Source: Deinococcales bacterium (lineage in GTDB: Bacteria; Deinococcota; Deinococci; Deinococcales; JAAFIG01). Taken from it: a stretch of DNA of 64,000 nucleotides. Below, one piece after another: positions 3,634 to 27,026 of this stretch. Below the pieces are notes generated by a model. The model was not told where the DNA came from and did not search any database. It was given only the letters and a program-made list of their open reading frames with translations. The position numbers and the translations under genes were made by a program. Where the stretch lies: contig JANNVX010000032.1 in the NCBI GenBank assembly GCA_031414595.1, positions 6,947 to 70,946 of the forward strand, written 5' to 3'. How positions within the stretch are numbered: the first letter of the stretch is position 1; the number at the start of each line of letters is the position of its first letter.

Positions 3634-3667
3634 CTCAAAGCCCATAGCCCAAAGCTCATAGCCCAAC
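3634..3667. repeat. left copy of a ~34-bp inverted repeat pair (CTCAAAGCCCATAGCNCAAAGCNCATAGC)
   Basis: About 90% identical to the reverse complement of 13617-13651. Abuts the stop codons of two convergent genes. Confidence 0.5.
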
Positions 3668-4098
3668 TATGGAATCACATATATCCCATCGCTGCGAGCC
3701 TCGAGCTTAAAGGCTGGTAATGGCTTGGCGGCTGGACCTTGAATCACTGCACCTGTTTCTAAGTTAAACAAACTGCCGTGGCAAGGGCAACCAAGTTGAT
3801 TATTGACGGGTGCGCTGACTCCACAGCCAACATGGGTGCAAACCGTAGAACGAGCAATTAAATGGATTTCGCCTTGGCTGATGCCAGCCGCTTGTGGTTT
3901 GGCAACCCTTGCAATAATGGCTGGATTGGTCTCGAGATTGAGGTTCTTAAAACTACCAACACTGGGAAATTCGCTTAAAGTCGCTACTTTTATGCCCGCT
4001 TGGGCTAGACTCGCTCCGGGGTTTTCTCGGATTGGCATACAGCCAGTCGCACCAATTGCTCCAATTGTAACTAGGGCTTCTCGTCTGGTGATTTTCAT
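3667..4098 (-). CDS. Rieske [2Fe-2S] protein with Tat signal
   Basis: Twin-arginine N-terminus MKITRREAL. Rieske boxes CTHVGC and CPCHGS. Confidence 0.75.
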   Translation of the reverse strand: MKITRREALVTIGAIGATGCMPIRENPGASLAQAGIKVATLSEFPSVGSFKNLNLETNPAIIARVAKPQAAGISQGEIHLIARSTVCTHVGCGVSAPVNNQLGCPCHGSLFNLETGAVIQGPAAKPLPAFKLEARSDGIYVIP

Positions 4099-4315: not shown

Positions 4316-5767
4316 GTGGGTATGAGTATGCTCGAATCTGTGCGTGATCGTTTGTTTCCTGATACTCCAGACGGGTCGGCAAAGCTGTGGCTTACGTCGT
4401 CTGTGGTCTGGGGGGTTATTGGCATGACCTTTGGTGTGTTCATGGCAATTTTGTTTGTCTTTCCAGAATTCACCAAAGGTGTGCCGTGGTTGTCGTTTAG
4501 TCGGATTCGTCCGTCACACGTCAACACCGTGGTGATGTCTTGGGTTTCGATGGCAAGCATTGGCTCGATGTTTTATATGTTGCCGCGCTTATTAAAGACT
4601 CCACTGGTTTCTGAGCGTCTGGGTACGGCGGTCGGTTGGTCTTGGAACGCCTTTGCCATCTGTATTCCGCTAACACTCTTAAATGGACTATCGGAAGGGC
4701 GCGAGTGGGCGGAGCTTGTTTGGTGGATGGATTGGTGGATGTTGATTAACCTTGGCTTGGTCGGTTATTTAACCTTTGCGACTGTGGCAAGACGCACCGA
4801 ACCACAATTGTACGTCTCGGTTTGGTATTGGATGGGTTCGATGGTTGGCATGACCTTGGTCTGGATTGTTGGCAACCGAACTTTTGTACCACTAGACGGA
4901 CTTAACGATGCGATTGCCAATTGGTTCTATGCCCACGATGTATTAGGATTATGGATTACCACCATGGGCATTGGAATTATTTACTACCTGTTGCCAAAAC
5001 TAACGGCTGGCAAGAATGGCGAACCGGGCAACCCTGTCTTTAGCCATAAAATGTCCTTGATTGGGTTCTGGGGAAATTTTGCCTTCTACACGGGTATTGG
5101 GGCGCATCACATTATTCAGTCGCCAGTTCCAGAATGGCTTAAAGCCTTTGCGATTGCCTCGAGTGTTTTAATGAGCATTCCAGTCTACTCGGCAAGTGCC
5201 AATTTTTTCTTAAGCACCCAAGGGCGTTGGGAGAACTTGGCTTGGAATTTACCGCTTCGATTTGTAACCTTTGGCTGGATTATGTACGCGCTCTCGAGTT
5301 TTCAGGGCAGTTTACAAGCAGTGCGTTCAATCAACTGGTATCAGCACTTCACGGGAATTGTCAGCGCTCACGCCCATTTAGCCATGCTTGGTGGCTTTAG
5401 CGTGGTGTTGTTTGCTAGTATTTATTACTGTATTCCGCGTCTTTACAAAGTCGAGTGGTACTCTAAAAAACTCGTGGTGGTGCATTTTTGGACGTTTACG
5501 GTTTCGTTTGTAATGTTCTTTTTGGTCTGGACAACCATGGGCTTTGTACAAGCCACCAGTTGGGTCATGGGGATTAACGTCCAACAAACCGTGCCATTTT
5601 TACAACCGTTTACCTTCACCCGCATGATTGCCGCGTTAGCGATGATTTTTTCGGTTTATATTTTTGCCTATAACGTGCTGCAAACTGTGCGGAGCGCTAA
5701 ACGTCAAGAGGCTTTTTCCGGAGCCAGAATTCCTTCAGCAGTTGCGCCTGCTGCGGCGGATGATTAG
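4316..5767 (+). CDS. ccoN: cbb3-type haem-copper oxidase subunit I (CcoN-like)
   Basis: 483 aa polytopic protein. His-ligand motifs GAHH and HAH are present. Followed by CcoO. SD GGAGGAAGG lies upstream. Confidence 0.75.
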   Translation: MGMSMLESVRDRLFPDTPDGSAKLWLTSSVVWGVIGMTFGVFMAILFVFPEFTKGVPWLSFSRIRPSHVNTVVMSWVSMASIGSMFYMLPRLLKTPLVSERLGTAVGWSWNAFAICIPLTLLNGLSEGREWAELVWWMDWWMLINLGLVGYLTFATVARRTEPQLYVSVWYWMGSMVGMTLVWIVGNRTFVPLDGLNDAIANWFYAHDVLGLWITTMGIGIIYYLLPKLTAGKNGEPGNPVFSHKMSLIGFWGNFAFYTGIGAHHIIQSPVPEWLKAFAIASSVLMSIPVYSASANFFLSTQGRWENLAWNLPLRFVTFGWIMYALSSFQGSLQAVRSINWYQHFTGIVSAHAHLAMLGGFSVVLFASIYYCIPRLYKVEWYSKKLVVVHFWTFTVSFVMFFLVWTTMGFVQATSWVMGINVQQTVPFLQPFTFTRMIAALAMIFSVYIFAYNVLQTVRSAKRQEAFSGARIPSAVAPAAADD

Positions 5768-5775
5768 GAGTTTTT

Positions 5776-6699
5776 ATGCTGAATCCTAAGAATGCAATTA
5801 TCGGGCTGATGTTTATGCTCCTTGTGACTGGTGTGACCAGTTTGGTGGTCGTCGTACCCGCCGCAACTTTTAATCCTGAGCCATCAGTTGGTTTACGCAA
5901 TTACACCGAAGCCGAGTTGCGTGGGCGCGAAGTTTTTAAGCGCGAGAACTGCTATGTTTGCCATAGTCAATTTGTGCGTTTTCAAGACGAAGGTGTTGGT
6001 CCAACTTCGCAAGCTGGCGACTTTGCCTACGACAATTCAAACTTGCTCGGCACGCTGCGAAATGGTCCGGATTTGACCTATGAAGGCGGCTTATACCCGG
6101 ACGAATGGCACATTGGGCATCTAAAAGCGCCGCGTTCGTACTTACCGGGCAGCTATATGCCAAGTTACAGTTACTTAGACTCTAAAGACATCAAAGACCT
6201 TGTGGCATTTATCCAAAGCCTTGGGACACGCAATACACGAGCTTGGGACACCAAAGATGTCAATGTCCCAGAAAAGTACCGCAATCTCGAGTCTCCACTT
6301 GGTCAGACGGCAGCAAATATCGGGGCTGGGCGTGGTATTTACAACCAGAATTGCTCGGCTTGTCACGGCTTTGAGGGTCGGGCAGATGTGCCTTTGGCAA
6401 AAATGTTCTATCCAAAACCAGCCGCCAATTTCCATTTGCCTCGTTATAAAGATTTTACCGACGGACACTGGTTTAATAAAGTCGCAAGGGGCGTACCGGG
6501 AACTCGGATGCCGCGCTGGGACCAAATTCTCAATTCTGAGCAAATGTGGTATGTCGTCACCTACCTAAAGTCTTTAGCAGCAGACCAAGACCTTGTGCCG
6601 AAAGCGGGACGGGAAAAGTATTACGACAAGTCAGTTTTGCAACCCGGAACAATCAAGAAAAAGTACGAAGGCGCACCTAAAGCGGGCGGTGGTCACTAA
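5776..6699 (+). CDS. ccoO: CcoO-like monohaem subunit fused to a second c-type cytochrome domain
   Basis: N-terminal TM helix. First CYVCHSQ...GPDL...MPSY region matches the FixO/CcoO pattern. A second CSACH haem motif sits in the C-terminal half. Confidence 0.7.
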   Translation: MLNPKNAIIGLMFMLLVTGVTSLVVVVPAATFNPEPSVGLRNYTEAELRGREVFKRENCYVCHSQFVRFQDEGVGPTSQAGDFAYDNSNLLGTLRNGPDLTYEGGLYPDEWHIGHLKAPRSYLPGSYMPSYSYLDSKDIKDLVAFIQSLGTRNTRAWDTKDVNVPEKYRNLESPLGQTAANIGAGRGIYNQNCSACHGFEGRADVPLAKMFYPKPAANFHLPRYKDFTDGHWFNKVARGVPGTRMPRWDQILNSEQMWYVVTYLKSLAADQDLVPKAGREKYYDKSVLQPGTIKKKYEGAPKAGGGH

Positions 6700-6992
6700 T
6701 GAAACATTTGGCTCGAGCCTTGGTTCTTGCTTGTTTCTCGAGTTTGGCATTTGCCGACCATGTGCCGGGCGTTGGCTTAAATTACAGTGGAACTTGGGTG
6801 GTGTTGATTGCTGTTGGTGTGATTTTTTCGCTTTTGATTTTGTCTTTGTTGTGGGCAGTTTTAGATGGGCAATTTCAGAATTCTGAACGGGTTAAATTTG
6901 CAGTGGCAGAGGTTAATGAAACCGATTTTATTCCGAGTATTGAGCGTCCGCAAGGCAATCTGGGTATTCAACGTCCGCAAGGCAAGAGGTGA
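6699..6992 (+). CDS. small membrane protein with C-terminal ERPQGN repeat
   Basis: TAATG-coupled to ccoO. One TM helix. The DNA carries a tandem copy of CGTCCGCAAGGCAA. Confidence 0.4.
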   Translation: MKHLARALVLACFSSLAFADHVPGVGLNYSGTWVVLIAVGVIFSLLILSLLWAVLDGQFQNSERVKFAVAEVNETDFIPSIERPQGNLGIQRPQGKR

Positions 6993-6995
6993 GTT

Positions 6996-7154
6996 ATGGC
7001 AGAGCAGAATAAAGACAACCACGACGACAACCATACCCACGAAATTGCTGGTATTCAAGTTGGCGAGAAAAACGTGCCAACCTCAGTGATTGCTGTGATT
7101 ATTTTCATTGTCTTTTTCGCCTTAATTTCTTGGATTGCACCACAGGGGTTTTGA
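6996..7154 (+). CDS. 52-aa single-TM protein, FixP_N/CcoQ-like
   Basis: Not in the ORF track (<60 aa). HTHEIAGIQ...TM helix resembles the CcoP N-terminal segment. Its stop overlaps the start of the next gene (TGATG). Confidence 0.35.
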   Translation: MAEQNKDNHDDNHTHEIAGIQVGEKNVPTSVIAVIIFIVFFALISWIAPQGF

Positions 7155-8158
7155 TGAAAAAAATCATAACACTCTTTCTAATCTCGAGTTTAGCCGCTTG
7201 TAGCGTACCGAGTAACGCCAATAATCCAGCCAAAGAAGCCGCCAAAAAAGGGGTTTTGTACATTCGTGAAGGCGAAAAACCACTTGAATTAAAAGTCGAA
7301 GAAGGCGCATATGACTGGAAGTACCCGAAGTACCCCGAAGATTACAAAGTTGATTTGAGTAACCGCGACCAAAACAACCAAACTTATATGTCTGGGCGGG
7401 AAATCACTTACCGAGCCAAACCCGATGGTCAACATAAAATGGACACTGCCTTGGCAGAATTTGGTTCATATGCAGGTCCTTGGCTCGAGGGCGAAGAAGC
7501 CTTGCTCTTACCAGTAGCCAACCCCAATGTGGTACTGGGTGACGCTTTAATCAAGAGTTTGGGGGCAGAAATCAAGCCCGAAATGCTGCCGACACTCGAA
7601 GAAACCCCTTTTCAGGCATACTTAAAATTGCGTGAACTTGGTAAGGACACGGAAGGTCGTCACCGCACTGTAACCATCGAATTAACTGGTGTGACTAACC
7701 CTTCGAGTGGCAAGCCCGAAAATGCCGAGTACGATGTTCAACTTGATAAAGAGGCTTTATGGAGCATTGCTTACGCTTTGTACCGCAAAATTCAACCTGA
7801 CTTTAAGACCAGAATTCCAACTCGAGAAGACCCGAAAAAACTACTCGATGGCGCATTGATTTACGGCAATTGCAACATGTGTCACGGCTCGGATGGTTGG
7901 GGCTTGGGCAAGAGTGGTCATAAGTTGCAACCACACCCAGCCAATTTTCATGAGCCAAGGCGTTTGTTTAATCGTTCTGATGCCAAACTGCGTGAAGTCT
8001 TGAAGCACGGAATTTACGGAAGTGCCATGCCACCGTGGGGTGACATACTCTCTGAAAATGAAATTAACCATGTGGTGGCATATATTCGTTCTTTTTCGTA
8101 CAGTCTCGAGCCACCAGTCTTGAATGTCAAACCACGTTTTAAGGGAGGTCAGCCATGA
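7154..8158 (+). CDS. lipoprotein with C-terminal monohaem cytochrome c domain (CcoP c-domain-like)
   Basis: Lipobox LAAC. CNMCH haem motif and a C-terminal cyt-c-like tail. Start trimmed to MKKIITL. Confidence 0.6.
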   Translation: MKKIITLFLISSLAACSVPSNANNPAKEAAKKGVLYIREGEKPLELKVEEGAYDWKYPKYPEDYKVDLSNRDQNNQTYMSGREITYRAKPDGQHKMDTALAEFGSYAGPWLEGEEALLLPVANPNVVLGDALIKSLGAEIKPEMLPTLEETPFQAYLKLRELGKDTEGRHRTVTIELTGVTNPSSGKPENAEYDVQLDKEALWSIAYALYRKIQPDFKTRIPTREDPKKLLDGALIYGNCNMCHGSDGWGLGKSGHKLQPHPANFHEPRRLFNRSDAKLREVLKHGIYGSAMPPWGDILSENEINHVVAYIRSFSYSLEPPVLNVKPRFKGGQP

Positions 8159-8183
8159 ACCTGACACTCAAGGGAGGTCAACC

Positions 8184-8837
8184 ATGATTGACCGCAGAAG
8201 TATCGTGAAAGGCATCACTATTTTGCCGCTTTTAGCTGTGGCTGGTGGGATTGGAACTGCCCTTTTATCGTTTCTTAAACCGACTTGGAAACCACTGGCT
8301 TTGCCTGTCACCGAAAAACCCTTAAATGAGGACAAAGTTGTTGGCACACTCGAGGAATTTGCTAAGGATTACGACTTTAAGGCGTTTGTATTCACGCAAA
8401 TTACCGTCGAATACACGGCTCGAGGGCGGGCGGCTACCGATGTGCTTGGTTATGCGGTTCGCATCCCCAATAACAGTTTAGCCGCCGCCGATGTGGGTGT
8501 TGGACCCAGTGGCTTACGCCGAGGCTACGGCGAAACTGATTACAATGGTCAAAAGTACAGCATTGTGGTGGTCTCAAGAATTTGCGCTCATTTGGGTTGT
8601 ATTTTTGAGTACCATCAACCTGCCGAAGTTTGTTCTGGCTTTAATTACTGTGGCGGCTCTACTCCAATGTTTTCTTGTCCGTGCCATTTATCGGTCTATG
8701 ACCCAGCCCAACAGCAAGATGTGGCTGGGGTTGGTAAATTACCCGGCAAGGTTGTCTCTGGTCCTGCGCCCCGCACTCCATTTCCTTTTGATTTTGAAAT
8801 TAAAGGCAATGAAATCATCGTCAAAAGCTACGGTTAA
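8184..8837 (+). CDS. Rieske iron-sulfur protein of a bc/b6f-type complex
   Basis: SD AGGGAGG then ATG. N-terminal TM helix. Rieske boxes CAHLGC and CPCHLS. Confidence 0.75.
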   Translation: MIDRRSIVKGITILPLLAVAGGIGTALLSFLKPTWKPLALPVTEKPLNEDKVVGTLEEFAKDYDFKAFVFTQITVEYTARGRAATDVLGYAVRIPNNSLAAADVGVGPSGLRRGYGETDYNGQKYSIVVVSRICAHLGCIFEYHQPAEVCSGFNYCGGSTPMFSCPCHLSVYDPAQQQDVAGVGKLPGKVVSGPAPRTPFPFDFEIKGNEIIVKSYG

Positions 8838-8849
8838 GGAGGAATACTT

Positions 8850-10157
8850 ATGGCAGCCCCCGCAGTTCCCGCAAAAAAAGCTGTTCCAAATGTTGGGCAA
8901 AAAATCGCCCAATGGTGGACTAAAAGTGCGCGTAATTTAGATTTATTTGACGAAAACCAAACCGATAAAGTTTTAACCGACCCGTGGTACATGCTTGGTG
9001 GGATGGCGTTGTTGTTTTGGTACATCACCATTGTGACAGGCACAGTTCTGATGTTTTTTTATGTGCCGGACACCTATCAGGCATGGCGCAGTGTGCGTGG
9101 AATGTTTGAAGGTGAACAGGGTTTTATTGTTGCCCTGATTCGCAATATGCACAAATACGGCGCAGATGCACTGATTATTGCCCTAACAATGCGAATTTAC
9201 CGCATGTACTTTAGGGGTGAATTTAAGAATTACAATCAGCTTTCCTATATGCTGACAATCATTGGCTTACTTTTAGCCATGTTTAGTGGTTTAACGGGTT
9301 ACTTGCTGATTTGGAATCAACGCGCACTGTGGGCAACCAAGGTTTTTGCGACCTTCCCAACTTTTGTGGATGATTTTCACAATATCCCGACGATCAAAGT
9401 CTTCCTAGCTCCGCTTGCTTATGTTCTCGAGCATACCCTCTCGAGTCTTAAAATTGGGGCTTTGACGGCTAATTTTATGCTGGCTGGTCAAAGTATCGGT
9501 CCAGCTACTTTGACCCGTTTTTACAGCGCCCATTTTATGCTTTCGATGCTGGCAATTTTGGCAATTGAAGCCTACTTTGCCCGTAAGGGACGCGGTGGTA
9601 AAATTGGTGAAGCGGCAGCCGGTGGTGGGGCTGGGCGCTTTAAGCGGATTAATTTACCGTGGTTTGCAGTGGTTTTTTGTTTTGTAATTCTGGTGGTAGT
9701 TTCGATTTGGGTTCCAGTGGATACGGGCAGCCCCGCGAACTACAGCGTTACGCCAAATCCGATTTTGTCCGACTGGTACTTTTTGGGGTTGTACCAAATG
9801 ATGAAGTGGTGGCAACCCGCCGTGGCAACCTTACAGACCGTTTTGCTTCCCTTGGTGGCTTTTATTGTCGTCTTTTTAGATTATAGCCCCGAACGCAATC
9901 CTTGGAAACGCCCGTTCTGGACAATGGTTGGAATTTACGGATTGGTCTCATGGTTGGCGTTTAGCATCCTGATTATTCTAAACATTGCCGACATTAAACG
10001 CGACCCACCTTATGTTTACTTGGTCAGCATGATTATGCTTGGGGCTGGCGCAATTTGGCACTGGGTCTTTATGGCAGGCGAACGCAAAAAACGCTTAAAA
10101 CTCGAGGCAGAAAAAGCCGCTAAAGCTGCTCTAGCCGCCCCACAAGCGGCTGATTAA
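8850..10157 (+). CDS. cytochrome b (long form) lacking both haem bH ligands
   Basis: Cyt b/b6 helix B and D motifs are present. First His is retained (NMHKYG, SAHFML). Residues at the +14 His positions are Arg and Tyr. Confidence 0.7.
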   Translation: MAAPAVPAKKAVPNVGQKIAQWWTKSARNLDLFDENQTDKVLTDPWYMLGGMALLFWYITIVTGTVLMFFYVPDTYQAWRSVRGMFEGEQGFIVALIRNMHKYGADALIIALTMRIYRMYFRGEFKNYNQLSYMLTIIGLLLAMFSGLTGYLLIWNQRALWATKVFATFPTFVDDFHNIPTIKVFLAPLAYVLEHTLSSLKIGALTANFMLAGQSIGPATLTRFYSAHFMLSMLAILAIEAYFARKGRGGKIGEAAAGGGAGRFKRINLPWFAVVFCFVILVVVSIWVPVDTGSPANYSVTPNPILSDWYFLGLYQMMKWWQPAVATLQTVLLPLVAFIVVFLDYSPERNPWKRPFWTMVGIYGLVSWLAFSILIILNIADIKRDPPYVYLVSMIMLGAGAIWHWVFMAGERKKRLKLEAEKAAKAALAAPQAAD

Positions 10158-10174
10158 GCGAAAGGAAAGCAATC

Positions 10175-10477
10175 ATGAAAGGAAGCACTTGGCTATTTAC
10201 CCTCGCCTCATTTGTTGGTGGCATCCTTGTCTTTTCAAGTGGCTACAACCAAGTGTTGCGCTACCTCGAGCAGCCGACTTGGACGGGCTTAGCGATGATT
10301 GCTTTTTGGTTGACTTTGCTGCTGTTTTTTGTGGTTACACTGGGGTTTATTATGTATGCCGTAGACCGCAAAGCTGGCAATGTACGGGTCAAAATCGCGT
10401 TATTTGAACGTTTACTGGGTTATTCTAAAGAGGCTGTTTTGCCAGAATCTCGAGAAAAAAATAAGGAGAATTCATGA
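10175..10477 (+). CDS. small membrane protein (2 TM)
   Basis: Hydrophobic 100-aa ORF with an SD. Lies within the coupled operon. Confidence 0.4.
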   Translation: MKGSTWLFTLASFVGGILVFSSGYNQVLRYLEQPTWTGLAMIAFWLTLLLFFVVTLGFIMYAVDRKAGNVRVKIALFERLLGYSKEAVLPESREKNKENS

Positions 10478-10845
10478 AGACAATCATCGCCATACTGCTG
10501 GTTTTAGGGGCGCTCGGACTTGCGCCTTTGACCATTGGGGCGTTCGCTCACGCCAATCCAGATTTTGGAACAGTTGATAAAACCTTATCTTCCGAAAATC
10601 CATACATTGTTCGTGAGGATGGAGCGCCAAAAATTCCAGAGCTTGCGGTGAGCTTGGTTAAAATTATTCGAGATACCGAAGGGGCGATTTCTGGGGCGTT
10701 GCTGCCAAACCTAAAATCCTTCCCATTTGAACGTGGCTTTGCGTATATGGGCTTAACTGTACTGCTGACTGCGATTGCTTCGGCACTGCTTGCCGATACG
10801 CGCAGTCAAACCCTCGTTAAACCTGGCAAGAGGAGGCTGGCATAA
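10474..10845 (+). CDS. exported protein (signal peptide)
   Basis: ATGA overlap with the upstream gene. Cleavable-looking N-terminus. Confidence 0.4.
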   Translation: MKTIIAILLVLGALGLAPLTIGAFAHANPDFGTVDKTLSSENPYIVREDGAPKIPELAVSLVKIIRDTEGAISGALLPNLKSFPFERGFAYMGLTVLLTAIASALLADTRSQTLVKPGKRRLA

Positions 10846-12032
10846 TGGCAGGTTACAGCGCCGACCAAGCCCCAACTTCTCGGGACAAAGGTTTTGATGC
10901 AGGTTTAGATGGTATCCATAAAGGTGTTGTTGCCGTAGACAAAGCCATCAATAAAGTCATCCCCGAAGAGTTCAATCCGTTTTATTACTTGGGCGGCATC
11001 ACCAATGTACTTTGGGTGCTGCTTGTGCCAACCGGCATTTTCTTGTGGTTTTACTATAAACCCACCACCTCAGAAGCCTTCTCGAGTGTTGATTATTTAA
11101 CCGTACAGGTCTTTTTTGGTGGTGTGATTCGCGGTATTCATCGTTATGCTGGCAATGGCATGATTTTATTGGCGGTGCTGCACATGTTGCGTAATTTCTT
11201 CACCGACCGTTACCGAGGCTTTAGAGATATCCCTTGGGTTTCTGGAGTTATCCTCTTGTTTCTAACTGGTTTCATTGGCTTGACTGGTTATTTGTTGGTT
11301 TGGGATCAACGCGCCTTGGTCATTACCGAAGCCTTGGTACAGATTTTACGCAGTTTTGACTTGGTGGTTGCTGGATTTGGCACTTGGTTAGCCAGAGGAC
11401 TCATCGGTGGTGACGAACCGAATAATTTAACCTTGGCTCGGATGCTGTTTTTGCATGTTGGACCTGCAGTGATGGTGTTCTTTTTCTTGTGGGTGCATTA
11501 TTTGCGTTTGCACCGCCCCAAAATCTGGCCTCCGGCTTTTGTAACGCTACTGACGATTGGCGCAGTTTTATTGGTGGCTGGTTTAGCACCACTCGAGAAA
11601 ACCTTGCCCGCCACACAACCGATTGTTGAAGGACAAGCTGCCATTGTCTATGACATTTTCTATTTGCTGCCTGTATTAGCGCTCTCGAGCATCAGCGCCC
11701 CTTGGATTTTGGCGATTCTACTGCTGCTTTTTGCGGTGATGTTTATTCTGCCTTGGATTCCAGCCAAAAAACACCGTTATGTCAATGTCGCAACCGTCAC
11801 CCCAGAAAACTGTACCGGTTGTCAACTCTGTGCTATTGACTGCCCGTTTGACGCAATCGTGATGGTTCCTGGAGCAAATCCAAATCCGCGTTATACCGAG
11901 TTAGCCGTGGTCAATGATGACAAATGTGCTGAATGTGGTATTTGCGTTGGTGCTTGCCCATTCCATGCAATCAATCTCCCGCTCATGGATGAATACACTG
12001 TGCGCGATAAGGTGGTGGCGTTACTTAAATGA
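10845..12032 (+). CDS. dihaem cytochrome b domain fused to 2x[4Fe-4S] ferredoxin domain
   Basis: Helix B has H..(13)..H (GIHRY...VLHML). Helix D has H..(13)..H (FLHVG...WVHYL). C-terminal CTGCQLCAIDCP and CAECGICVGACP motifs. Confidence 0.75.
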   Translation: MAGYSADQAPTSRDKGFDAGLDGIHKGVVAVDKAINKVIPEEFNPFYYLGGITNVLWVLLVPTGIFLWFYYKPTTSEAFSSVDYLTVQVFFGGVIRGIHRYAGNGMILLAVLHMLRNFFTDRYRGFRDIPWVSGVILLFLTGFIGLTGYLLVWDQRALVITEALVQILRSFDLVVAGFGTWLARGLIGGDEPNNLTLARMLFLHVGPAVMVFFFLWVHYLRLHRPKIWPPAFVTLLTIGAVLLVAGLAPLEKTLPATQPIVEGQAAIVYDIFYLLPVLALSSISAPWILAILLLLFAVMFILPWIPAKKHRYVNVATVTPENCTGCQLCAIDCPFDAIVMVPGANPNPRYTELAVVNDDKCAECGICVGACPFHAINLPLMDEYTVRDKVVALLK

Positions 12033-12517
12033 CACAAGCAACTGAACATATCCAACCCCAAGTTTTAGCCTTGAGTGGCAAACCCAAAATTTTTGGCTTT
12101 GTCTGCGAATGGAGCTTAGGACGCACCGATTACATCCATGAAGATGGCACGGTCAAAGGCATGGAGCATATCAAAACCCTTAAAATTCCTTGCTCGGGCT
12201 TTGTGAAAACCGAATGGGTCACGGTGGCATTTGAAAATGGCGCTCAAGGTGTGTTTGTGCTGGGTTGCCCACTCGGAGATTGCCATTTTAACGAAGGTAA
12301 CTTCATTATTAACGGCAGACTCGAGCAGCACACAGGCAGAATGGTCAACCGTAAAATCATTGACGAAGCTGGGCGCGTTGCCGAGCTTTACCTTGGTGTG
12401 ACTGGCAACAACGATTTCTTTACTCAACTCGAAGACTTCACCAAGTACATCAGCGACATGCCAGCCTTGGTAGTCGCTGCCAAAAAACCTCGGGCTGCGG
12501 CAGCCAAAAAGGAGTAA
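12029..12517 (+). CDS. MvhD/FlpD-like hydrogenase iron-sulfur subunit family protein
   Basis: Cys pattern CEWS...PCSGF...GCPLGDCHF, typical of the methyl-viologen-reducing hydrogenase delta subunit family. ATGA-coupled to the upstream gene. Confidence 0.6.
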   Translation: MTQATEHIQPQVLALSGKPKIFGFVCEWSLGRTDYIHEDGTVKGMEHIKTLKIPCSGFVKTEWVTVAFENGAQGVFVLGCPLGDCHFNEGNFIINGRLEQHTGRMVNRKIIDEAGRVAELYLGVTGNNDFFTQLEDFTKYISDMPALVVAAKKPRAAAAKKE

Positions 12518-12806: not shown

Positions 12807-13616
12807 ATGGCAAGAATCCCTTTAACAACACCTGAGCCAGCCGAACCTTCCAATGCGATGGATAAGTTGCGTATGAGCCAAATAGAAATTATCTCGATCA
12901 CCCCATTTATTCGGCTCGAGAAGGGCAATTGGCAAGGCAAGCGTGTGCTGGTCAAACGCTTAAAAACATCCATGATGAACAACCCTGATGTGCTTGAACG
13001 CTTCGAGCGCGAAGCCGATATTCTCGAGCGGCTTGACCACCCGAATATCCCAGCCTTGATTCACCGCGAATCTGGGGTACTGATGCGCCAATACGTTGAA
13101 GGCAACACGCTTTATCATTACCTCAACACCGCCACCATAGACACCGCCTCAACTTTGCATATTGCAAGGGGTTTATTGTCGGCATTGGTGCATTCGCACG
13201 TCCGAGAAATCCTACATTTGGATGTCAAACCCGCCAATGTGCTACTCAGCGCTGACCGCCGCGTCCATCTGATTGATTTTGGATGTGCCAAAGACCTGAC
13301 TTTGGGCAGTATTACCCACCATGAAGCCCGTCTTGGCACACCGCATTACATGGCACCCGAGCAATTCAAAGGCATCCGCGATGAACAACGCTCCGACATT
13401 TACAGCGTCGGGGCAGTGATGTACGAATGCCTGATGGGACAACCACCACAACGTGACCCATTTGCATGGTTATCTGGACGTGGTGCATTACCCAAGCAAA
13501 TGCCTAAGAATAATCAGTTGGCTGATATCATCTGGAAAGCCATTCAACGCAACCCAGACCACCGATACGACGAAGCCCTTGATATGCTCGAGGCGTTAGA
13601 AGCGATTGAAGTTTAG
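12807..13616 (+). CDS. Ser/Thr protein kinase (Hanks-type)
   Basis: HLDVKPANVLL catalytic loop, DFG, and GTPHYMAPE activation segment. Confidence 0.75.
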   Translation: MARIPLTTPEPAEPSNAMDKLRMSQIEIISITPFIRLEKGNWQGKRVLVKRLKTSMMNNPDVLERFEREADILERLDHPNIPALIHRESGVLMRQYVEGNTLYHYLNTATIDTASTLHIARGLLSALVHSHVREILHLDVKPANVLLSADRRVHLIDFGCAKDLTLGSITHHEARLGTPHYMAPEQFKGIRDEQRSDIYSVGAVMYECLMGQPPQRDPFAWLSGRGALPKQMPKNNQLADIIWKAIQRNPDHRYDEALDMLEALEAIEV

Positions 13617-21816: not shown

Positions 21817-24549
21817 ATGACCCCAGAAGAACGCGCCAGATTCCGCATAGACCAACAACTGCTGGCATCTGGTTGGGTTCTACAAAACAAAGATGAGTTT
21901 AATCGCACGGCTGCTTTTGGGGTGGCGGTGCGTGAATTTGCCTTGTTAAACGGCGAAGCTGATTATTTGCTGTTTGTGGATGGTAAAGCCATTGGGGTTC
22001 TCGAGGCAAAACCAGTTGGCACGACCCTTTCTGGGGTGGCAGAACAAACCAAGAAATACCTCGAAGGAGTACCGCCGCACCTCGCCAAACACAGTGCCAA
22101 TTTGCCTTTTGGCTTTGAAAGTACAGGACAAGAAACGTTTTTAATAGATACCCGAGACCCGAATGCCCGTTCAAGGCGAATTTTTCAAATCCACCGCCCA
22201 GAAACCCTGCTCGAGTGGGTGCGGCAGCCAACGACCTTACGAACCCGTTTAAGCCAGTTACCAAGCGTAGACAAAAACGGTTTGCGCTTATGCCAAATAG
22301 AGGCAGTTGGCGGACTCGAGCAGAGTTTAAGCCAGAATAAACCCCGCGCTTTAATTCAGATGGCAACCGGCAGCGGCAAAACCTTTACTGCCGTGACCAG
22401 CAGTTACCGCTTGATAAAACAGGCTGGCGCAAAACGAATTTTGTTCTTGGTAGACCGCAACAATTTAGCCAAACAAACCCTCGCCGAATTCCAGCAATAC
22501 ACCACCCCAGACGATGGGCGCAAATTTAGTGAACTCTACAATGTCCAGATGCTACAAGGTAAACGCCTAGACCCTGTAGCCAAAGTAGTGATTGGCACAA
22601 TCCAGCGCCTTTTTAGTATGCTTAAAGGCGAAGAGATAGACGATGAACTCGATAACAAAAGCCTGCATGAACTGGGGATTAAAGACCAAAAACCCAAAGA
22701 AGTGATGTATAACCCCGAGATTCCGATAGATTCTTTTGATTTTATTATTATTGACGAATGCCACCGCAGCATTTATAACCTCTGGCGTGGGGTTCTCGAG
22801 TATTTTGATGGGTTTTTGATTGGTTTAACCGCCACCCCAAGTAAACAAACGATTGGCTTTTTTAACCAGAACCTTGTGACCGAATACGCCTACAGCCAAG
22901 CCGTCAAAGATAATGTCAATGTGGATTACGATGTCTACCGCATTAAAACCCAAATTGGCGAATTTGGGGCAACCATCGAACAAGGCGAATACATTGATAA
23001 ACGCGACCGCCAAACCCGCCGTAAACGCTGGGAGGCACTGGACAATGACCTTGAATACACAGGCAAAGAACTTGACCGCAGCGTTGTAGCGGTCAGCCAA
23101 ATCCGCACCGTGATTCGCACCTACAAAGAAAAACTGCTCGAGATTTTCCCAGAGCGCAGCCATACCCCAAAAACCCTGATATTTGCTAAAACCGATAGCC
23201 ATGCCGAAGATATTGTTGAAATTGTGCGTGAAGAATTTGGCAAAGGCAATGATTTTTGTAAAAAAATAACCTACCGCACAACCGAAGACCCCGAAACGTT
23301 GATCAAAGAATTTCGCAACAATTATTATCCACGAATTGCCGTGACCGTAGACATGATTAGCACTGGCACAGACATTAAACCACTCGAGGTGCTGCTGTTT
23401 ATGCGCGATGTTGCCAGCGCTGTCTACTTTGAACAAATGAAGGGACGCGCCACCCGCACCATCCATCCAGACGAACTCAAAGCCGTCACCCCAGATGCCA
23501 AACACAAAACCCATTTTGTGCTGGTGGACGCAGTGGGCGTAACCGAAACAATCAAAACCGATTCTAAACCACTCGAGCGCTTACCGAGTATTCCCTTTGC
23601 CAAAATCCTGCAAAAAATTGCCATGGGCGACACCAGCTTAGAAACCATCTCGAGTTTAGCCAGCCGTTTAACCCGACTTGATAAAAAACTAAGCGAAACC
23701 AGCCGCGATGCACTGGAAGTCCACGCCAAAAAAGACCTCAAAACCGTTGTTGCAAACCTCATTCGCGCCACCGACCCAGACAGCATCGAAGCCCACGCCA
23801 TAACCCAAACGGGCAACCCCAACCCAAGCGATTTGCAATACGACCAAGCCCAATCTGACTTAGCCGAAAATGCCGCCCAGCCATTTAATAACCCAGAATT
23901 CAGGCGTTTACTCGAGGACATCCAACGCGATAGCGAACAAACCATAGACACCGTCACCCAAGACCAAGTGCTGTATGTCGGCTACGATTTTGACAAAGCC
24001 AGACGGATGGTACAAACATGGCAAGACTTTATCGAACAACACAAAAACGAACTGACGGCACTGCAAATTATTTACAACCAACCCAAGCAACAACAAAAAC
24101 TGACCTTTGCCGCAATCCAACAACTTGCCAGCGCCATCGAGCAGCCACCGTACTATTTAACCCCAGAAAATGTTTGGAAAGCCTACGAAAACCTCGAGCA
24201 AACCCGAGTGAAAAGCAGCCACAACCCGCAGCGCCTCCTAACCGACCTTGTAGCCTTGGTGCGCTTTACAACTGGGCAAGACACGATGCTAACACCATTT
24301 ATGGACACCGTACAACACCGTTTTCAGACATGGCTAAGTCTGCAACAATCGAGCGGCACAGCTTTTAGTACAGAACAACTCGAGTGGCTAGGCATGATCC
24401 GAGACCACATTGCCAGCAGTGCTGCGATTGAGATTCAAGACCTCGAACTCAGCCCGTTTCACCAACGCGGTGGGGCATACAAAGCCGTACAATTATTTAA
24501 GAACATCAGACCACTGCTCGAGGAACTCAACACGACCCTGAGTGCATAA
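21817..24549 (+). CDS. hsdR: type I restriction enzyme R subunit
   Basis: Walker A TGSGKTFT. DEAH-box DECHRS. Helicase C motifs. 910 aa. Confidence 0.85.
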   Translation: MTPEERARFRIDQQLLASGWVLQNKDEFNRTAAFGVAVREFALLNGEADYLLFVDGKAIGVLEAKPVGTTLSGVAEQTKKYLEGVPPHLAKHSANLPFGFESTGQETFLIDTRDPNARSRRIFQIHRPETLLEWVRQPTTLRTRLSQLPSVDKNGLRLCQIEAVGGLEQSLSQNKPRALIQMATGSGKTFTAVTSSYRLIKQAGAKRILFLVDRNNLAKQTLAEFQQYTTPDDGRKFSELYNVQMLQGKRLDPVAKVVIGTIQRLFSMLKGEEIDDELDNKSLHELGIKDQKPKEVMYNPEIPIDSFDFIIIDECHRSIYNLWRGVLEYFDGFLIGLTATPSKQTIGFFNQNLVTEYAYSQAVKDNVNVDYDVYRIKTQIGEFGATIEQGEYIDKRDRQTRRKRWEALDNDLEYTGKELDRSVVAVSQIRTVIRTYKEKLLEIFPERSHTPKTLIFAKTDSHAEDIVEIVREEFGKGNDFCKKITYRTTEDPETLIKEFRNNYYPRIAVTVDMISTGTDIKPLEVLLFMRDVASAVYFEQMKGRATRTIHPDELKAVTPDAKHKTHFVLVDAVGVTETIKTDSKPLERLPSIPFAKILQKIAMGDTSLETISSLASRLTRLDKKLSETSRDALEVHAKKDLKTVVANLIRATDPDSIEAHAITQTGNPNPSDLQYDQAQSDLAENAAQPFNNPEFRRLLEDIQRDSEQTIDTVTQDQVLYVGYDFDKARRMVQTWQDFIEQHKNELTALQIIYNQPKQQQKLTFAAIQQLASAIEQPPYYLTPENVWKAYENLEQTRVKSSHNPQRLLTDLVALVRFTTGQDTMLTPFMDTVQHRFQTWLSLQQSSGTAFSTEQLEWLGMIRDHIASSAAIEIQDLELSPFHQRGGAYKAVQLFKNIRPLLEELNTTLSA

Positions 24550-24564
24550 GGGTAGAATACCGTC

Positions 24565-24852
24565 ATGGATACCCAAGCCATACAGCAGATTCTAGGGCAA
24601 CACCAAGCCGAACTTCGGGCGTTTGGTGTGCGCGAACTGCTTTTGTTTGGCAGCACTGCCCGAGGCGAAGCCACGCCGCAAAGCGACCTAGATTTTTTGG
24701 TCGAACTCGAGCGATACACACTAACCGATTTTATGGGCTTAAAATTTGCACTCGAAGAATGGTTTGGTCAAAAAATAGATTTAGGGACTCGAGCCAGCCT
24801 AAAACCGATACTGAGCGCCGAAGTCGAAAAGGACTTACGCCGTGTCGCGTAA
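24565..24852 (+). CDS. mntA: MNT-type nucleotidyltransferase antitoxin (second copy)
   Basis: FGSTARGEATPQSDLDFLV motif. Confidence 0.7.
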   Translation: MDTQAIQQILGQHQAELRAFGVRELLLFGSTARGEATPQSDLDFLVELERYTLTDFMGLKFALEEWFGQKIDLGTRASLKPILSAEVEKDLRRVA

Positions 24853-25192
24853 ACTAGAATTGTATTTAATCGATATTCTCGAGGCAATAGCGCGATTAAA
24901 GTTATTTACCAAAGGCTTTGACCAAGAAGCCTACCTGAATTCGTTGCTGGTACGAGATGCGAGCTTTCGCAATTTTATGGTTATTGGCGAGGCAGTTAAG
25001 CAAATTTCCGATGAATCTCGAGCTAAACACCCAACAGTACCTTGGAAATCTATTGCGGGTTTACGAGATTTATTAGCCCATGAGTATTTTAGAACCGATG
25101 ATCGAATTTTATGGAATGTAATTGAAAAAGAACTAGACCCACTCAAAGAAGCAGTCTTGGCACTTCTAGCAGCAAGCAAGGCTGACCGATGA
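24842..25192 (+). CDS. hepT: HepT/DUF86 toxin (second copy)
   Basis: GTG start overlapping the MNT gene. RDLLAHEY motif. Confidence 0.7.
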   Translation: MSRKLELYLIDILEAIARLKLFTKGFDQEAYLNSLLVRDASFRNFMVIGEAVKQISDESRAKHPTVPWKSIAGLRDLLAHEYFRTDDRILWNVIEKELDPLKEAVLALLAASKADR

Positions 25193-26727
25193 CCCTAACC
25201 AAAACGCAACCCGATTTTTTTGCAGTTCTGACAGGCGCACAAGCCACAGCTGCCCCCGCGTTGCAGGAGTTACCAATGAACTGGGAATGGGCAAAACTCG
25301 AGGATGTTTATAAAATTGTTGGTGGTGGAACTCCTGCAACTGCAAATCAAGAGTTTTGGAATGGAGATATTCCGTGGATCACCAGTGCTGATATTACTGA
25401 TTCTGGCGAAATAAATCCCAGAAAGTTCATTACAGAGATTGGTGTAAAAAATTCACCAATTAACATTATTCCCGAGGGCGCAATTGTCATTGCTACTCGA
25501 GTGAGTTTGGGTAAGATTGCAATTGCACCAACAAAACTTACTTTCAGTCAAGATTGCCAAGGATTGTTGGCAGAAATTCAAGTTCTCGAGCCAGCTTTTG
25601 CATTGCATTTTTTAGCAACAGAAGCAAAAAAGTTTCAGTACATTAGTCGTGGTACTACGATTTCGGGAATTACAAAAAAACAGCTTTCAGAACTGAATGT
25701 GCGTGTCCCGCCGCTTCTCGAGCAGAAACGAATTGTGGCTAAACTCGAGGAATTACTATCCGAACTCGAGTTTGGGGTCAAAACCCTAAAAATTGCTTTG
25801 GCAAAAGTCAAAAAATACCGTCAGAGTGTGCTTAAAGCTGCCGTTCAAGGCGATTTATCCAAGGCGTGGCGTGAAGCCCAAGGCGGTTCGCTCGAGCCAG
25901 CCAGTGTGTTGTTAAAAAAAGTCTTACTCGAGCGCCAACAAAAATGGATTCTCGAGCAGCAAGCCAAGGGCAGGAAAAATGCGAAGTACACCGAGCCACA
26001 AGCCCCAGACTCGAGCGGTTTGGCGGAATTACCAGAAGGTTGGGTCTGGACAACAGCAGGATATATTTGTGACTGTATTGTTCCAAATCGTGATAAGCCT
26101 CAATCTTTTACAGGCGACATACCTTGGATTACGATTCCAGATTTTGATTCAAGTAACCTACATATTTCCAAGGCTAAATCTGGTTTAGGTTTAACTCGAG
26201 AAGAAGTTGAGAAATATCGAGCAAGATTGATTCCAGTAAACAGCGTCATTATGACTTGTGTGGGTCGTTTTGGAATAGCAGCAACCACTAAACAAGAATG
26301 CGTAATCAATCAGCAACTTCACGCTTTTCTATTTGTTCCTGAGTTGATTCCTGAGTATTTGACAATTGTTTTAATAACTCAAAAATCCTACATGGATAAG
26401 AAGGCAAACGCGACAACAATTGCTTACTTAAATAAGGAAAGTTGTAACAGCGTTCCTCTCCCTCTTCCCCCGCTCGAGGAACAAGCCTTTATTGTCTCCC
26501 AAGTCGAAGCGAAACTATCTGCCACCGACCATCTCGAGAACAGCATCAAAGCCAATTTGCTACGGGCGGAACGCTTGCGGGCAAGTACGCTCAATATGGC
26601 GTTTCGTGGTGAGCTTGTCGCCCAAGACGCAACGGATGAACCGGCGGCGGTACTGCTCGAGCGGATACGCGGTTTGCGGGCAGAGGCGGGACGTAAGAAG
26701 TTGCCTAAAAAATCATCTAGCCCTTAA
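25189..26727 (+). CDS. hsdS: type I R-M specificity subunit
   Basis: Two AT-rich target-recognition domains separated by conserved helical spacers (LPPLLEQKRI / LPLPPLEEQ). Confidence 0.8.
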   Translation: MTLTKTQPDFFAVLTGAQATAAPALQELPMNWEWAKLEDVYKIVGGGTPATANQEFWNGDIPWITSADITDSGEINPRKFITEIGVKNSPINIIPEGAIVIATRVSLGKIAIAPTKLTFSQDCQGLLAEIQVLEPAFALHFLATEAKKFQYISRGTTISGITKKQLSELNVRVPPLLEQKRIVAKLEELLSELEFGVKTLKIALAKVKKYRQSVLKAAVQGDLSKAWREAQGGSLEPASVLLKKVLLERQQKWILEQQAKGRKNAKYTEPQAPDSSGLAELPEGWVWTTAGYICDCIVPNRDKPQSFTGDIPWITIPDFDSSNLHISKAKSGLGLTREEVEKYRARLIPVNSVIMTCVGRFGIAATTKQECVINQQLHAFLFVPELIPEYLTIVLITQKSYMDKKANATTIAYLNKESCNSVPLPLPPLEEQAFIVSQVEAKLSATDHLENSIKANLLRAERLRASTLNMAFRGELVAQDATDEPAAVLLERIRGLRAEAGRKKLPKKSSSP

Positions 26728-26743
26728 TCAGCTATAATTTCGT

Positions 26744-26983
26744 ATGCTTCAGACTTTGTTTACAGTGGGTGACGGCACGGCGGTAATTATTCTAGCCGAT
26801 TTACTCAAGCGGTACGGCTTAAAAGCTGGGGATTTGGTCAATTTGCTCAGTACCGAAGCAGGAATTGCAATTGTACCAGAAACGGGTTTAGACCCAAGTT
26901 TTGAAAATGCCTTACGCACCATTTCGAGAGAACGCCATGAATTGTTTCAACGCCTTACTGACTTTGATACACAAAAACCATGA
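26744..26983 (+). CDS. small AbrB/SpoVT-like protein
   Basis: 79 aa. A swapped-hairpin-like VGDGTAVIIL...GLKAGDLV segment. Embedded between hsdS and hsdM. Confidence 0.35.
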   Translation: MLQTLFTVGDGTAVIILADLLKRYGLKAGDLVNLLSTEAGIAIVPETGLDPSFENALRTISRERHELFQRLTDFDTQKP

Positions 26984-27026
26984 GGTTCGTTGCATTTTGG
27001 CTCGAGTCTCGGGTTAGCATGGGCGC

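Follow-up and report, generated by a model that had tools for sequence, protein, structure and literature searches.

The window analysed in this study, 64,000 nucleotides of contig JANNVX010000032.1 (positions 6,947 to 70,946), belongs to an uncultured Deinococcales clade and shows 97-99% identity to three Deinococcales/Deinococcota contigs of metagenome-assembled genomes (MAGs). It carries a tightly packed run of genes (4316-12517; gaps of -35 to +17 nt, and one of 137 nt), in which the genes for a cbb3-like haem-copper oxidase, a cytochrome c and a Rieske protein are followed by those for a full-length cytochrome b (here designated Q1), two small membrane proteins, a second cytochrome b fused to a ferredoxin domain (Q2), and a FlpD/MvhD-type electron-transfer protein (Table 1). 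Q1 is without both ligands of haem bH and adjoins a two-haem, Fe-S-fused cytochrome b, and the pair suggests a complex III that is naturally divided over two cytochromes b, in hundreds of bacterial species.

Loss of the haem bH ligands in Q1

The open reading frame (ORF) of Q1 was found exactly as given in the first-pass annotation (8850-10157, plus strand, 435 amino acids), and so were the four short motifs reported around the ligand positions of helices B and D (NMHKYG, ALTMRIY, SAHFML, and EAYFARK). Its product matched the N- and C-terminal cytochrome b domains of Pfam (PF00033, PF13631, and PF00032) above cutoff, and the AlphaFold2 model made from 29 homologues (predicted local distance difference test, pLDDT, 79; predicted template modelling score, pTM, 0.80) resembled in Foldseek the full-length cytochrome b of solved bc1 complexes (template modelling score, TM, 0.55-0.71). 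No solved structure of a close relative of Q1 or Q2 was found, the best matches in the Protein Data Bank (PDB) being ordinary b6/bc1 proteins (E=1e-22 for Q1 and E=5e-33 for Q2).

As that annotation had claimed, the first His of each ligand pair in helices B and D is kept (H101 and H228), and the residues 14 positions further on (B+14 and D+14) are R115 and Y242 (codon 9573-9575), a register on which four independent alignments agreed. In the HMMER alignment with solved cytochrome b6, R115 stands opposite the bn His of helix B ("almrnmHkygadaliialtmRiyr"). BLASTP between Q1 and Q2, ungapped over helices A-C at 35% identity, places R115 opposite H113, and the profile-profile comparison of the Q1 and Q2 families by hhalign (probability 100%, E=1.3e-45) places R115 at the bH position and Y242 with H218. 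R115 was also at the position of the bH His in MAFFT alignments with 120 and with 150 homologues. In helix D, Y242 corresponds to the bH His in the register of bc1 (+14), and F243 in that of b6 (+15).

A register off by one helical turn, with other His residues at the ligand positions, had been named in the same annotation as the observation that would overturn it, and was looked for by alignment and by an inventory of His residues. Q1 contains five His in total (101, 177, 195, 228, and 404), none of them within residues 102-130 or 229-271, and therefore no shift of register can give Q1 a bH ligand. H177 and H195 are inside a non-conserved loop insertion on the positive (p) side of the membrane, position 404 varies among H, D, Q, and E in the family, and over its full length the protein has no more than two conserved His columns. 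A substitute bH ligand one turn away was ruled out by this inventory and by the two conserved His columns.

Family-wide counts were obtained from a scan of one genome per GTDB species, which gave 506 Q1 loci; the loci analysed are the best 80 of these 506 and 11 more from other look-ups, with flanks of up to 10 kb ("absent" below means absent from the flank), and the residue counts of Q1 are based on 83 loci. Bis-His ligation of haem bL is retained in Q1 (H101 and H228), and bis-His ligation of haem bH is lacking, with His in 0/83 at B+14 and in 1/83 at D+14, where Y (60), R (19), W (2), H (1), and F (1) occur; F, V, or I is found at the next position, D+15. The helix-C glycine that packs on the n-side (negative-side) haem is present in 12/83 of Q1 proteins, versus [S/T]G in 74/75 of Q2 proteins. 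Neither Q1 (WYMLGG) nor Q2 (FYYLGG) has the haem cn-binding Cys of the CxGG motif, which reads FYCLGG in b6. The replacement of the bH ligands throughout the family and the loss of the helix-C glycine in most members, together with the invariance of the bL ligands, the R98-x-x-H101 motif, and the region of the quinol-oxidising (Qo) site, support the prediction that Q1 holds haem bL alone. The same sequence evidence supports the further claim that Q1 would be unable to run a classical Q cycle by itself, and Q1 appears to be without a recognisable n-side quinone (Qi) site.

It could be supposed that Q1 still has an n-side cofactor, either a haem with Tyr, Lys, or Glu as its ligand, or a quinone that binds tightly and serves as a relay, and thus a complete transmembrane wire. 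Such a cofactor would fit the invariance of R118 (83/83), the Arg that binds the bH propionate in canonical cytochrome b, and of Glu240, and also the retention of the helix-A glycine G50, but we consider it very unlikely: the variation at D+14 (Y/R/W/H/F) and at B+14 (R/K) is not the pattern of a metal ligand, Arg is no haem ligand, the helix-C glycine is mostly replaced, and the conserved His columns are only two. A salt bridge between R115 and E240 as a filler of the bH pocket is a speculation; D+12 and D+14 face different sides of the helix.

Conservation of the Q1 family

A search for homologues of Q1 was performed in 5.8 billion proteins. Among the 120 best homologues covering helix B, all had R or K at B+14 and Glu at D+12, and D+14 was mostly Tyr, with a few Arg, His, or Trp. 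An exhaustive HMMER pass over 1.84 billion representatives, clustered at 50% identity, gave a clean boundary: all representatives with at least 114 bits that cover both positions had the R/K...E pattern with SDWY or PDWY, and nearly all of those with 111 bits or less were ordinary four-His cytochromes b with PEWY, PDWY, or APWY. Three proteins below the boundary (P0286, P0352, and P0361) are also without a bH ligand, one or both. Judged from these alignments, loss of bH is a family trait of Q1 and not a one-off; the loss that the first-pass annotation had described in one paralogue is real, but it marks a large conserved family instead of being the oddity of a single protein.

The Qo motif of Q1 is SDWY in place of PEWY/PDWY, and that of the sister subclade is PDWY; in SDWY the acidic residue and WY are retained and Pro is replaced. 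SDWY does not occur in the survey of Kao and Hunte (PMC4122944). A loop insertion of about 30 amino acids relative to cytochrome b6 (cd loop; residues 172-201, window 9363-9452) lies over the Qo side of Q1, and is longer and Trp-rich (WYWPWEG) in Vampirovibrionales.

The loss of two normally invariant ligands might be taken to mean that Q1 is a decaying or non-functional duplicate. The conservation data refute this explanation, the probability of which is practically negligible: about 70 positions are at least 97% conserved over at least six phylum-level groups, the gene has a strong ribosome-binding site (AAGGAGG, 8 nt upstream), and 506 loci exist among the GTDB species representatives. The ratio of nonsynonymous to synonymous substitution rates (dN/dS) of Q1 against close relatives was 0.014-0.031, by which a pseudogene or relaxed selection was ruled out.

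The Fe-S-fused paralogue Q2 and the FlpD protein

The paralogue at 10845-12032, used as a control in the first-pass annotation, keeps four His as was stated there (H99, H113, H204, and H218), aligned with those of cytochrome b6 (E=5e-33). Q2 matched Pfam Cytochrome_B and Fer4, its AlphaFold2 model had a pLDDT of 82 and a pTM of 0.78, and the four His and eight Cys are conserved in all complete sequences. By the positive-inside rule and the absence of a signal, the ferredoxin domain is predicted to be cytoplasmic. The cytochrome b part of Q2 is truncated after helix F, and its hhalign alignment with the Q1 family spans helices A-F. In bc1, the dimer core and the bL-bL contact are located in the portion of helices A-F; since Q2 is aligned with Q1 over this portion, Q2 keeps the helices that form the bc1 dimer core. 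The n-side B-C and D-E loops of Q2 contain a set of invariant residues (R116, T120, R122, R127, W131, R221, and P225). On the p side, the Qo-like motif is degenerate (x-D-[W/A/L/V/I]-[F/L/W]) and is deleted outright in one of the sister operons described below (L090).

The protein encoded after Q2 matched FlpD (PF02662) with 73 bits against a cutoff of 22, and was aligned with MvhD of the Hdr-Mvh complex (5ODC_D; E=1.4e-14) including the Cys motifs. Its four Cys are kept in 65/65, and no hydrophobic segment was found, as expected for a cytoplasmic protein. The Q2 ferredoxin domain and FlpD are colinear with the C-terminus of HdrA2 (residues 571-777). A similar set, composed of a membrane dihaem cytochrome b, a [4Fe-4S] domain, and an MvhD-type [2Fe-2S] module, is found in QmoC and the MvhD domain of QmoB; the Qmo cytochrome b is, however, of the NarI/HdrE type whereas Q2 is of the b6 type, and no HdrA-like flavoprotein is present in the window.

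Co-occurrence of Q1 with Q2 and FlpD

The Rieske gene was located upstream of Q1 in 79/79 loci, and the gene for CcoN, subunit I of the oxidase, in 58/60 loci with enough upstream flank. Q2 and FlpD were located downstream of Q1 in 63 of the 65 loci with at least 3 kb of downstream sequence. The loci are labelled as Deinococcales, Vampirovibrionales/Melainabacteria (including Vampirovibrio and Obscuribacterales loci), Fimbriimonadaceae, Holophagaceae/Solibacteraceae, Symbiobacterium, Anaerolineae, and one Proteobacteria MAG, and those with the Q1-Q2-FlpD pairing span at least six phylum-level groups.

The pairing is also found in operons of other composition, among them those without oxidase (L081-L083). 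Of these, L081 and L082 combine ccm genes and a dihaem cytochrome c with Rieske, a cytochrome b of the Q1 type (SDWY, with R at B+14, F or W at D+14, and E at D+12), two small proteins, Q2, and FlpD. In a separate bH-less lineage (P0352, with ADWY; L089, 151-2435), a Q2-type gene follows directly. The PDWY subclade has a sister operon (L090, 946-8471; L091, 4661-12186) in which Rieske, a Q2-type protein with four His and eight Cys, FlpD, and a polyferredoxin are followed by an AsrA/HydB/ShyB-like Fe-S subunit, an AsrB/HydG/PyrK-like FAD/NAD(P)-binding [2Fe-2S] subunit, and finally a bH-less Q1-type cytochrome b and two small proteins. The core is joined here to a flavoprotein chain that binds NAD(P), and the ferredoxin/FlpD end is thus a port from Q2 to redox chains of the cytoplasm, in this operon to NAD(P)(H). 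The PDWY cytochrome b of this operon carries a charged insertion of 100-300 amino acids in the A-B loop.

Other genes of the operon and its surroundings

Coordinates of the genes and of the key positions of Q1 are listed in Table 1. ATGA overlaps connect the small subunits to Q2 and Q2 to FlpD.

Table 1. Genes of the Q1 operon and key positions within Q1 (window coordinates)
Feature	Position	Strand	Description
CcoN	4316..5767	+	Haem-copper oxidase subunit I, cbb3 (C-family)-like; Pfam COX1 E=4e-68
CcoO/FixO	5776..6699	+	Fused to a second c-type cytochrome domain; Pfam FixO E=8e-35 and Cytochrom_C
Small membrane protein of oxidase part	6699..6992	+	One helix; overlaps preceding stop; conserved in Deinococcales clade only
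Cytochrome c	7130..8158	+	Lipoprotein-type, monohaem; Cytochrome_CBB3/Cytochrom_C at residues 240-321; CxxCH 248-252; syntenic
Rieske [2Fe-2S] protein	8124..8837	+	Twin-arginine anchor; boxes CAHLGC (154-159) and CPCH (185-188)
Q1	8850..10157	+	435 amino acids, ATG start; full-length 8-helix cytochrome b with bL ligands only
D31-L-F33-D34-E35 of Q1	8940..8954	+	n-side acidic motif, family signature; D 82/83, F 81/83, D 83/83, E 83/83
His101 of Q1	9150..9152	+	Helix B bL ligand, aligned to b6 His86; His 83/83
Arg115 of Q1	9192..9194	+	Helix B bH-ligand position (B+14); R 72, K 11, His 0 of 83
His228 of Q1	9531..9533	+	Helix D bL ligand, aligned to b6 His187; His 83/83
Glu240-Ala-Tyr242 of Q1	9567..9575	+	Glu at D+12 in 83/83; non-His at helix D bH position
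SDWY of Q1	9768..9779	+	Qo motif, in place of PEWY/PDWY; each residue 83/83
First small membrane subunit	10175..10477	+	Between Q1 and Q2; conserved across phyla
Second small membrane subunit	10474..10845	+	Two hydrophobic segments; ATGA overlaps on both sides; weakly conserved
Q2	10845..12032	+	Dihaem cytochrome b (helices A-F) fused to cytoplasmic 2x[4Fe-4S] ferredoxin domain
FlpD/MvhD-type protein	12029..12517	+	[2Fe-2S] electron-transfer protein; Pfam FlpD PF02662 E=3e-20, 73 bits (cutoff 22)

The first small subunit has no Pfam or NCBIfam family. Its residues Y61, G68, V70, and L76 are invariant over Deinococcales, Vampirovibrionales, and the L081/L082 lineage within the motif Y-x-V-[DE]...G-x-V...L-[FY]-[ED]-W (counterparts at L084, 7364-7687, and L081, 8527-8811), and a protein of L086 matches too. 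The second small subunit has positional equivalents in other phyla.

The oxidase has the architecture of the cbb3 type, with a COX1-fold CcoN adjoining CcoO/FixO, the latter with two CxxCH motifs (Cys59/62 and Cys193/196). The matches to the ccoN model TIGR00780 (245 bits, cutoff 583) and to TIGR00781 (117 bits, cutoff 201) are below equivalog level, and no protein of the cluster reaches a curated NCBIfam cutoff. The oxidase is a divergent member of the cbb3 type and a putative oxygen reductase. The cytochrome c is presumed to be the acceptor of the Rieske protein. The Rieske boxes are kept in 80-82 of 82 loci, and matches to Pfam and NCBIfam Rieske models are weak. In the Deinococcales clade (18/82 loci), the Rieske protein has two extra Cys between the cluster boxes (C170 and C176; window 8631-8651).

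Just upstream of the oxidase operon, a second small Rieske-type protein of 143 amino acids is encoded divergently on the opposite strand (3667-4098), with a twin-arginine translocation (Tat) signal and the boxes CTHVGC...CPCHGS; the NCBIfam models that it matched, all weakly, include those of QcrA, PetC, and the small subunit of arsenite oxidase. A Ser/Thr protein kinase-like gene (12807-13616, plus strand) starts 289 nt after FlpD and is syntenic only in the Deinococcales clade (six loci). Further away are a molybdopterin oxidoreductase catalytic subunit (39566-41794, plus strand; Pfam Molybdopterin and Molydop_binding), possibly an extra respiratory enzyme, and a type I restriction-modification system (21817-28496) with a 910-amino-acid HsdR-like helicase, HsdS, and the methylase HsdM. 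No other canonical cytochrome b was found among the ORFs scanned in the window.

A split complex III as the proposed function

The conservation of Q1 and Q2 is complementary. The invariant positions of Q1 are on the p side (the surroundings of bL, the cd and ef loops, and TPxPILSDWYFL), and its n side retains few charged residues, including D31-x-F-D-E35, R118, E240, and R266, whereas the invariant positions of Q2 are on the n side. Q1 therefore looks like a specialist for Qo and bL, and Q2 like a specialist for the transmembrane route and the n side. We put at about even the chance that a Rieske/cytochrome b complex is split here, with Q1 as its quinol-oxidising half; its unit would be a Q1:Q2 heterodimer with one Rieske protein.

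In this complex Q1 would retain the equipment of the p side, namely the SDWY Qo pocket, haem bL, and the Rieske interface, and would have lost haem bH and the n-side quinone site. Quinol, probably menaquinol, would be oxidised at Q1, and the first electron would reach the cbb3-like oxidase of the same operon by way of the Rieske cluster and cytochrome c. The second electron would reduce haem bL of Q1 and, since there is no inward route inside Q1, cross the dimer interface to haem bL of Q2; such a heterodimer with a bL-bL bridge would be the simplest outlet for the bL electron of Q1. Q2 would then move the electron from bL through bH and the fused 2x[4Fe-4S] domain to the MvhD-like [2Fe-2S] protein on the cytoplasmic side, and the path may end at a cytoplasmic partner or at a quinone that Q2 binds on its n side. 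The four-His paralogue is almost certainly the functional partner that restores the transmembrane route, and a Q-cycle-like or bifurcating mechanism is therefore possible for the complex as a whole.

A number of points weigh against this reading. It is by inference that Q1 and Q2 are paired physically, that an electron hops from bL to bL, that it flows in the direction given, and that it ends at the acceptor named; the ligand loss, the operon, the co-occurrence, and the complementary conservation are demonstrated. Two Vampirovibrionales MAG loci (L070 and L071) have Q1, Rieske, and oxidase, with neither Q2 nor FlpD in the flank; in L071 the strand switches about 1 kb after Q1, and in L070 the absence rests on no tblastn matches. 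No conservation of Qi residues of the bc1 or b6f type could be recognised in Q2: the position of a His at +5 from the bH ligand varies, and no bc1-like Asp/Lys pair is found, quinone binding itself not being judgeable from sequence. No cytoplasmic partner of FlpD is encoded in the operon of the window, and the taxon labels of Q1 loci are mostly MAG-derived. The energetics are also tight by textbook potentials, an electron that crosses against the membrane potential keeping little drive for low-potential acceptors. With menaquinol, the bifurcated electron starts at about -300 mV or lower by an estimate from textbook values, and much is lost in the crossing of the membrane, so that a quinone or a mid-potential acceptor would be reduced more easily than NAD(P)+, except where the Rieske cluster has an unusually high potential.

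A more specific version of the heterodimer can be put forward only tentatively and is considered doubtful as a whole. It would be an obligate heterodimeric complex III, in which the bL-to-bL "bus bar" is the sole low-potential route and the electron is exported through the haem-[4Fe-4S]-[2Fe-2S] wire without return to the quinone pool, that is, a Q-cycle-free quinol-based bifurcating enzyme. In the L090-type operon the electron would go to NAD(P)+, and in the cbb3-linked type to another cytoplasmic partner; the enzyme would be widespread in Melainabacteria, Deinococcota, Acidobacteriota, and Armatimonadota.

The two loci without Q2 in the flank are those expected if a homodimer of Q1 with Rieske functions without Q2, as a quinol:cytochrome c oxidoreductase that runs no Q cycle, and if Q2-FlpD is a separate quinone-linked module sharing the operon. 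Haem bL would then only park the second electron, which returns through Qo to Rieske, and both electrons would reach the oxidase at 1 H+/e- instead of 2. Q1 has all the parts for Qo chemistry, and bypass reactions of this kind are known in bc1. We consider this arrangement unlikely, however, because Q2 and FlpD accompany Q1 in 63/65 loci and in three operon types, the p side of Q2 is degenerate so that Q2 by itself is without an obvious quinol site, and the strong conservation of bL is hard to account for in a dead-end cofactor. Symmetric bH knock-outs of bc1, moreover, give no growth (PMC4152375).

The flavoprotein chain of the sister operon raises the possibility that the same Q1:Q2 complex runs mainly in reverse, with electrons passing from a cytoplasmic reductant, NAD(P)H in the L090 type and some other donor in the window operon, through FlpD and the ferredoxin domain to the haems of Q2 and to quinone, which would be reduced at the n side of Q2 or, in a confurcating mode, at Qo jointly with the Rieske branch. 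Flow from NAD(P)H to menaquinone would be thermodynamically easy, and reverse-running bc1 complexes were discussed by Kao and Hunte (PMC4122944). Reversal is nevertheless quite unlikely: the core in the window is linked to a terminal oxidase and cytochrome c, in agreement with forward quinol oxidation, outward electron flow through the haems would dissipate the membrane potential, and no Qi signature is present in Q2.

Comparison with known systems

Q1 shares with the canonical bc1, b6f, and bcc complexes the 8-helix fold, bis-His ligation of bL, the xDWY Qo motif, an adjacent Rieske and cytochrome c, and the coupling to a haem-copper oxidase. It differs from them by the absence of bH ligands and of a recognisable Qi site, by the second Fe-S cytochrome b and the MvhD-like subunit in the operon, and by SDWY. 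Ligation of bH is among the features that define cytochrome b, and Q1, in which it is lacking, is therefore not classed as a standard member; by its sequence it would be a variant of the Rieske/cytochrome b kind.

An experimental parallel is known from the bc1 of Rhodobacter capsulatus (Ekiert et al. 2014, PMC4152375). Knocking out bH symmetrically by H212N abolishes function, and photosynthetic growth is lost; when H212N is confined to one half of a fused dimer and Qo is knocked out in the other half, the bL-bL bridge sustains such growth. Q1 and Q2 show naturally the two defects of this cross-inactivated enzyme, the absence of bH and of a working Qo, and Q1:Q2 would be its natural counterpart. 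The engineered dimers are, however, laboratory mutants of a homodimer with normal Qi, whereas Q1 and Q2 are separate, long-diverged genes with an Fe-S exit on the n side and a heterodimer that is presumed.

Q2 and FlpD match the architecture of the "PDWF-FeS clade" (Kao and Hunte 2014, PMC4122944), a cytochrome b-FeS fusion described as being without Rieske in the cluster, with respect to the 4Fe-4S fusion and the MvhD/FlpD gene, and relatives of Q2 have xDWF-like motifs; the present loci differ in having a Rieske gene in every case and a bH-less cytochrome b. All sequences missing any of the four His were dropped from that survey as unable to complete the Q cycle (PMC4122944), and therefore partners of the Q1 type could not show up in it.

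In the anammox bacterium Kuenenia, Rieske/cytochrome b complexes are associated with NAD(P) oxidoreductase subunits (Kustd1480-85 and Kuste4569-74), and it was proposed that Qo bifurcation sends the low-potential electron to a cytoplasmic acceptor, towards NAD(P)H, and not to Qi (PMC12954380). The combination of a Rieske/cytochrome b core with a cytoplasmic Fe-S flavoprotein module is the same as in the L090-type operon. The anammox cytochromes b were modelled with bP, bN, and cN haems as homodimers, whereas here the haems are split over two paralogues and the Cys for cN is absent; the operon of the window has no NAD(P) oxidoreductase subunit, which only the sister operon (L090/L091) encodes.

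Loss of an n-side haem ligand was mentioned in passing, with no function assigned, for a Pyrobaculum cytochrome b (PMC4122944) and for the short cyanobacterial "subfamily K" (PMC5600118). In these cases a single ligand is lost in narrow lineages of other subfamilies, and no partner dihaem cytochrome b-ferredoxin was reported. The gene neighbourhood of Q1 is the same as that of the "complex III/IV fusion" of Melainabacteria/Obscuribacter, a type C haem-copper oxidase beside petB/petC-like genes (Matheus Carnevali et al. 2019, PMC6349859, citing Soo et al.), which was annotated as a cytochrome b6f-like complex III; that report is silent on the missing haem ligands, the second cytochrome b-ferredoxin, and FlpD. 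No description of a bH-less cytochrome b in such an operon was found in the searchable literature, outside which are many subscription papers, and the arrangement of Q1 and Q2 has apparently not yet been described.

Implications

The four haem-ligating His of cytochrome b have been treated as invariant, yet the Q1 family has lost bH systematically and keeps a Qo site of perfect conservation. The family includes the "complex III" that has been invoked in arguments on the acquisition of aerobic respiration by relatives of Cyanobacteria. If the Q1:Q2 heterodimer is true, it would represent a natural experiment on electron transfer between monomers, which has been debated for two decades for bc1, and a tractable system for Qo bifurcation that feeds cytoplasmic Fe-S chains, as proposed but unproven in the anammox complexes. 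In that case, the stoichiometry or the function may be wrong in metabolic reconstructions that score Q1 genes as cytochrome b6f or as a standard proton-pumping complex III.

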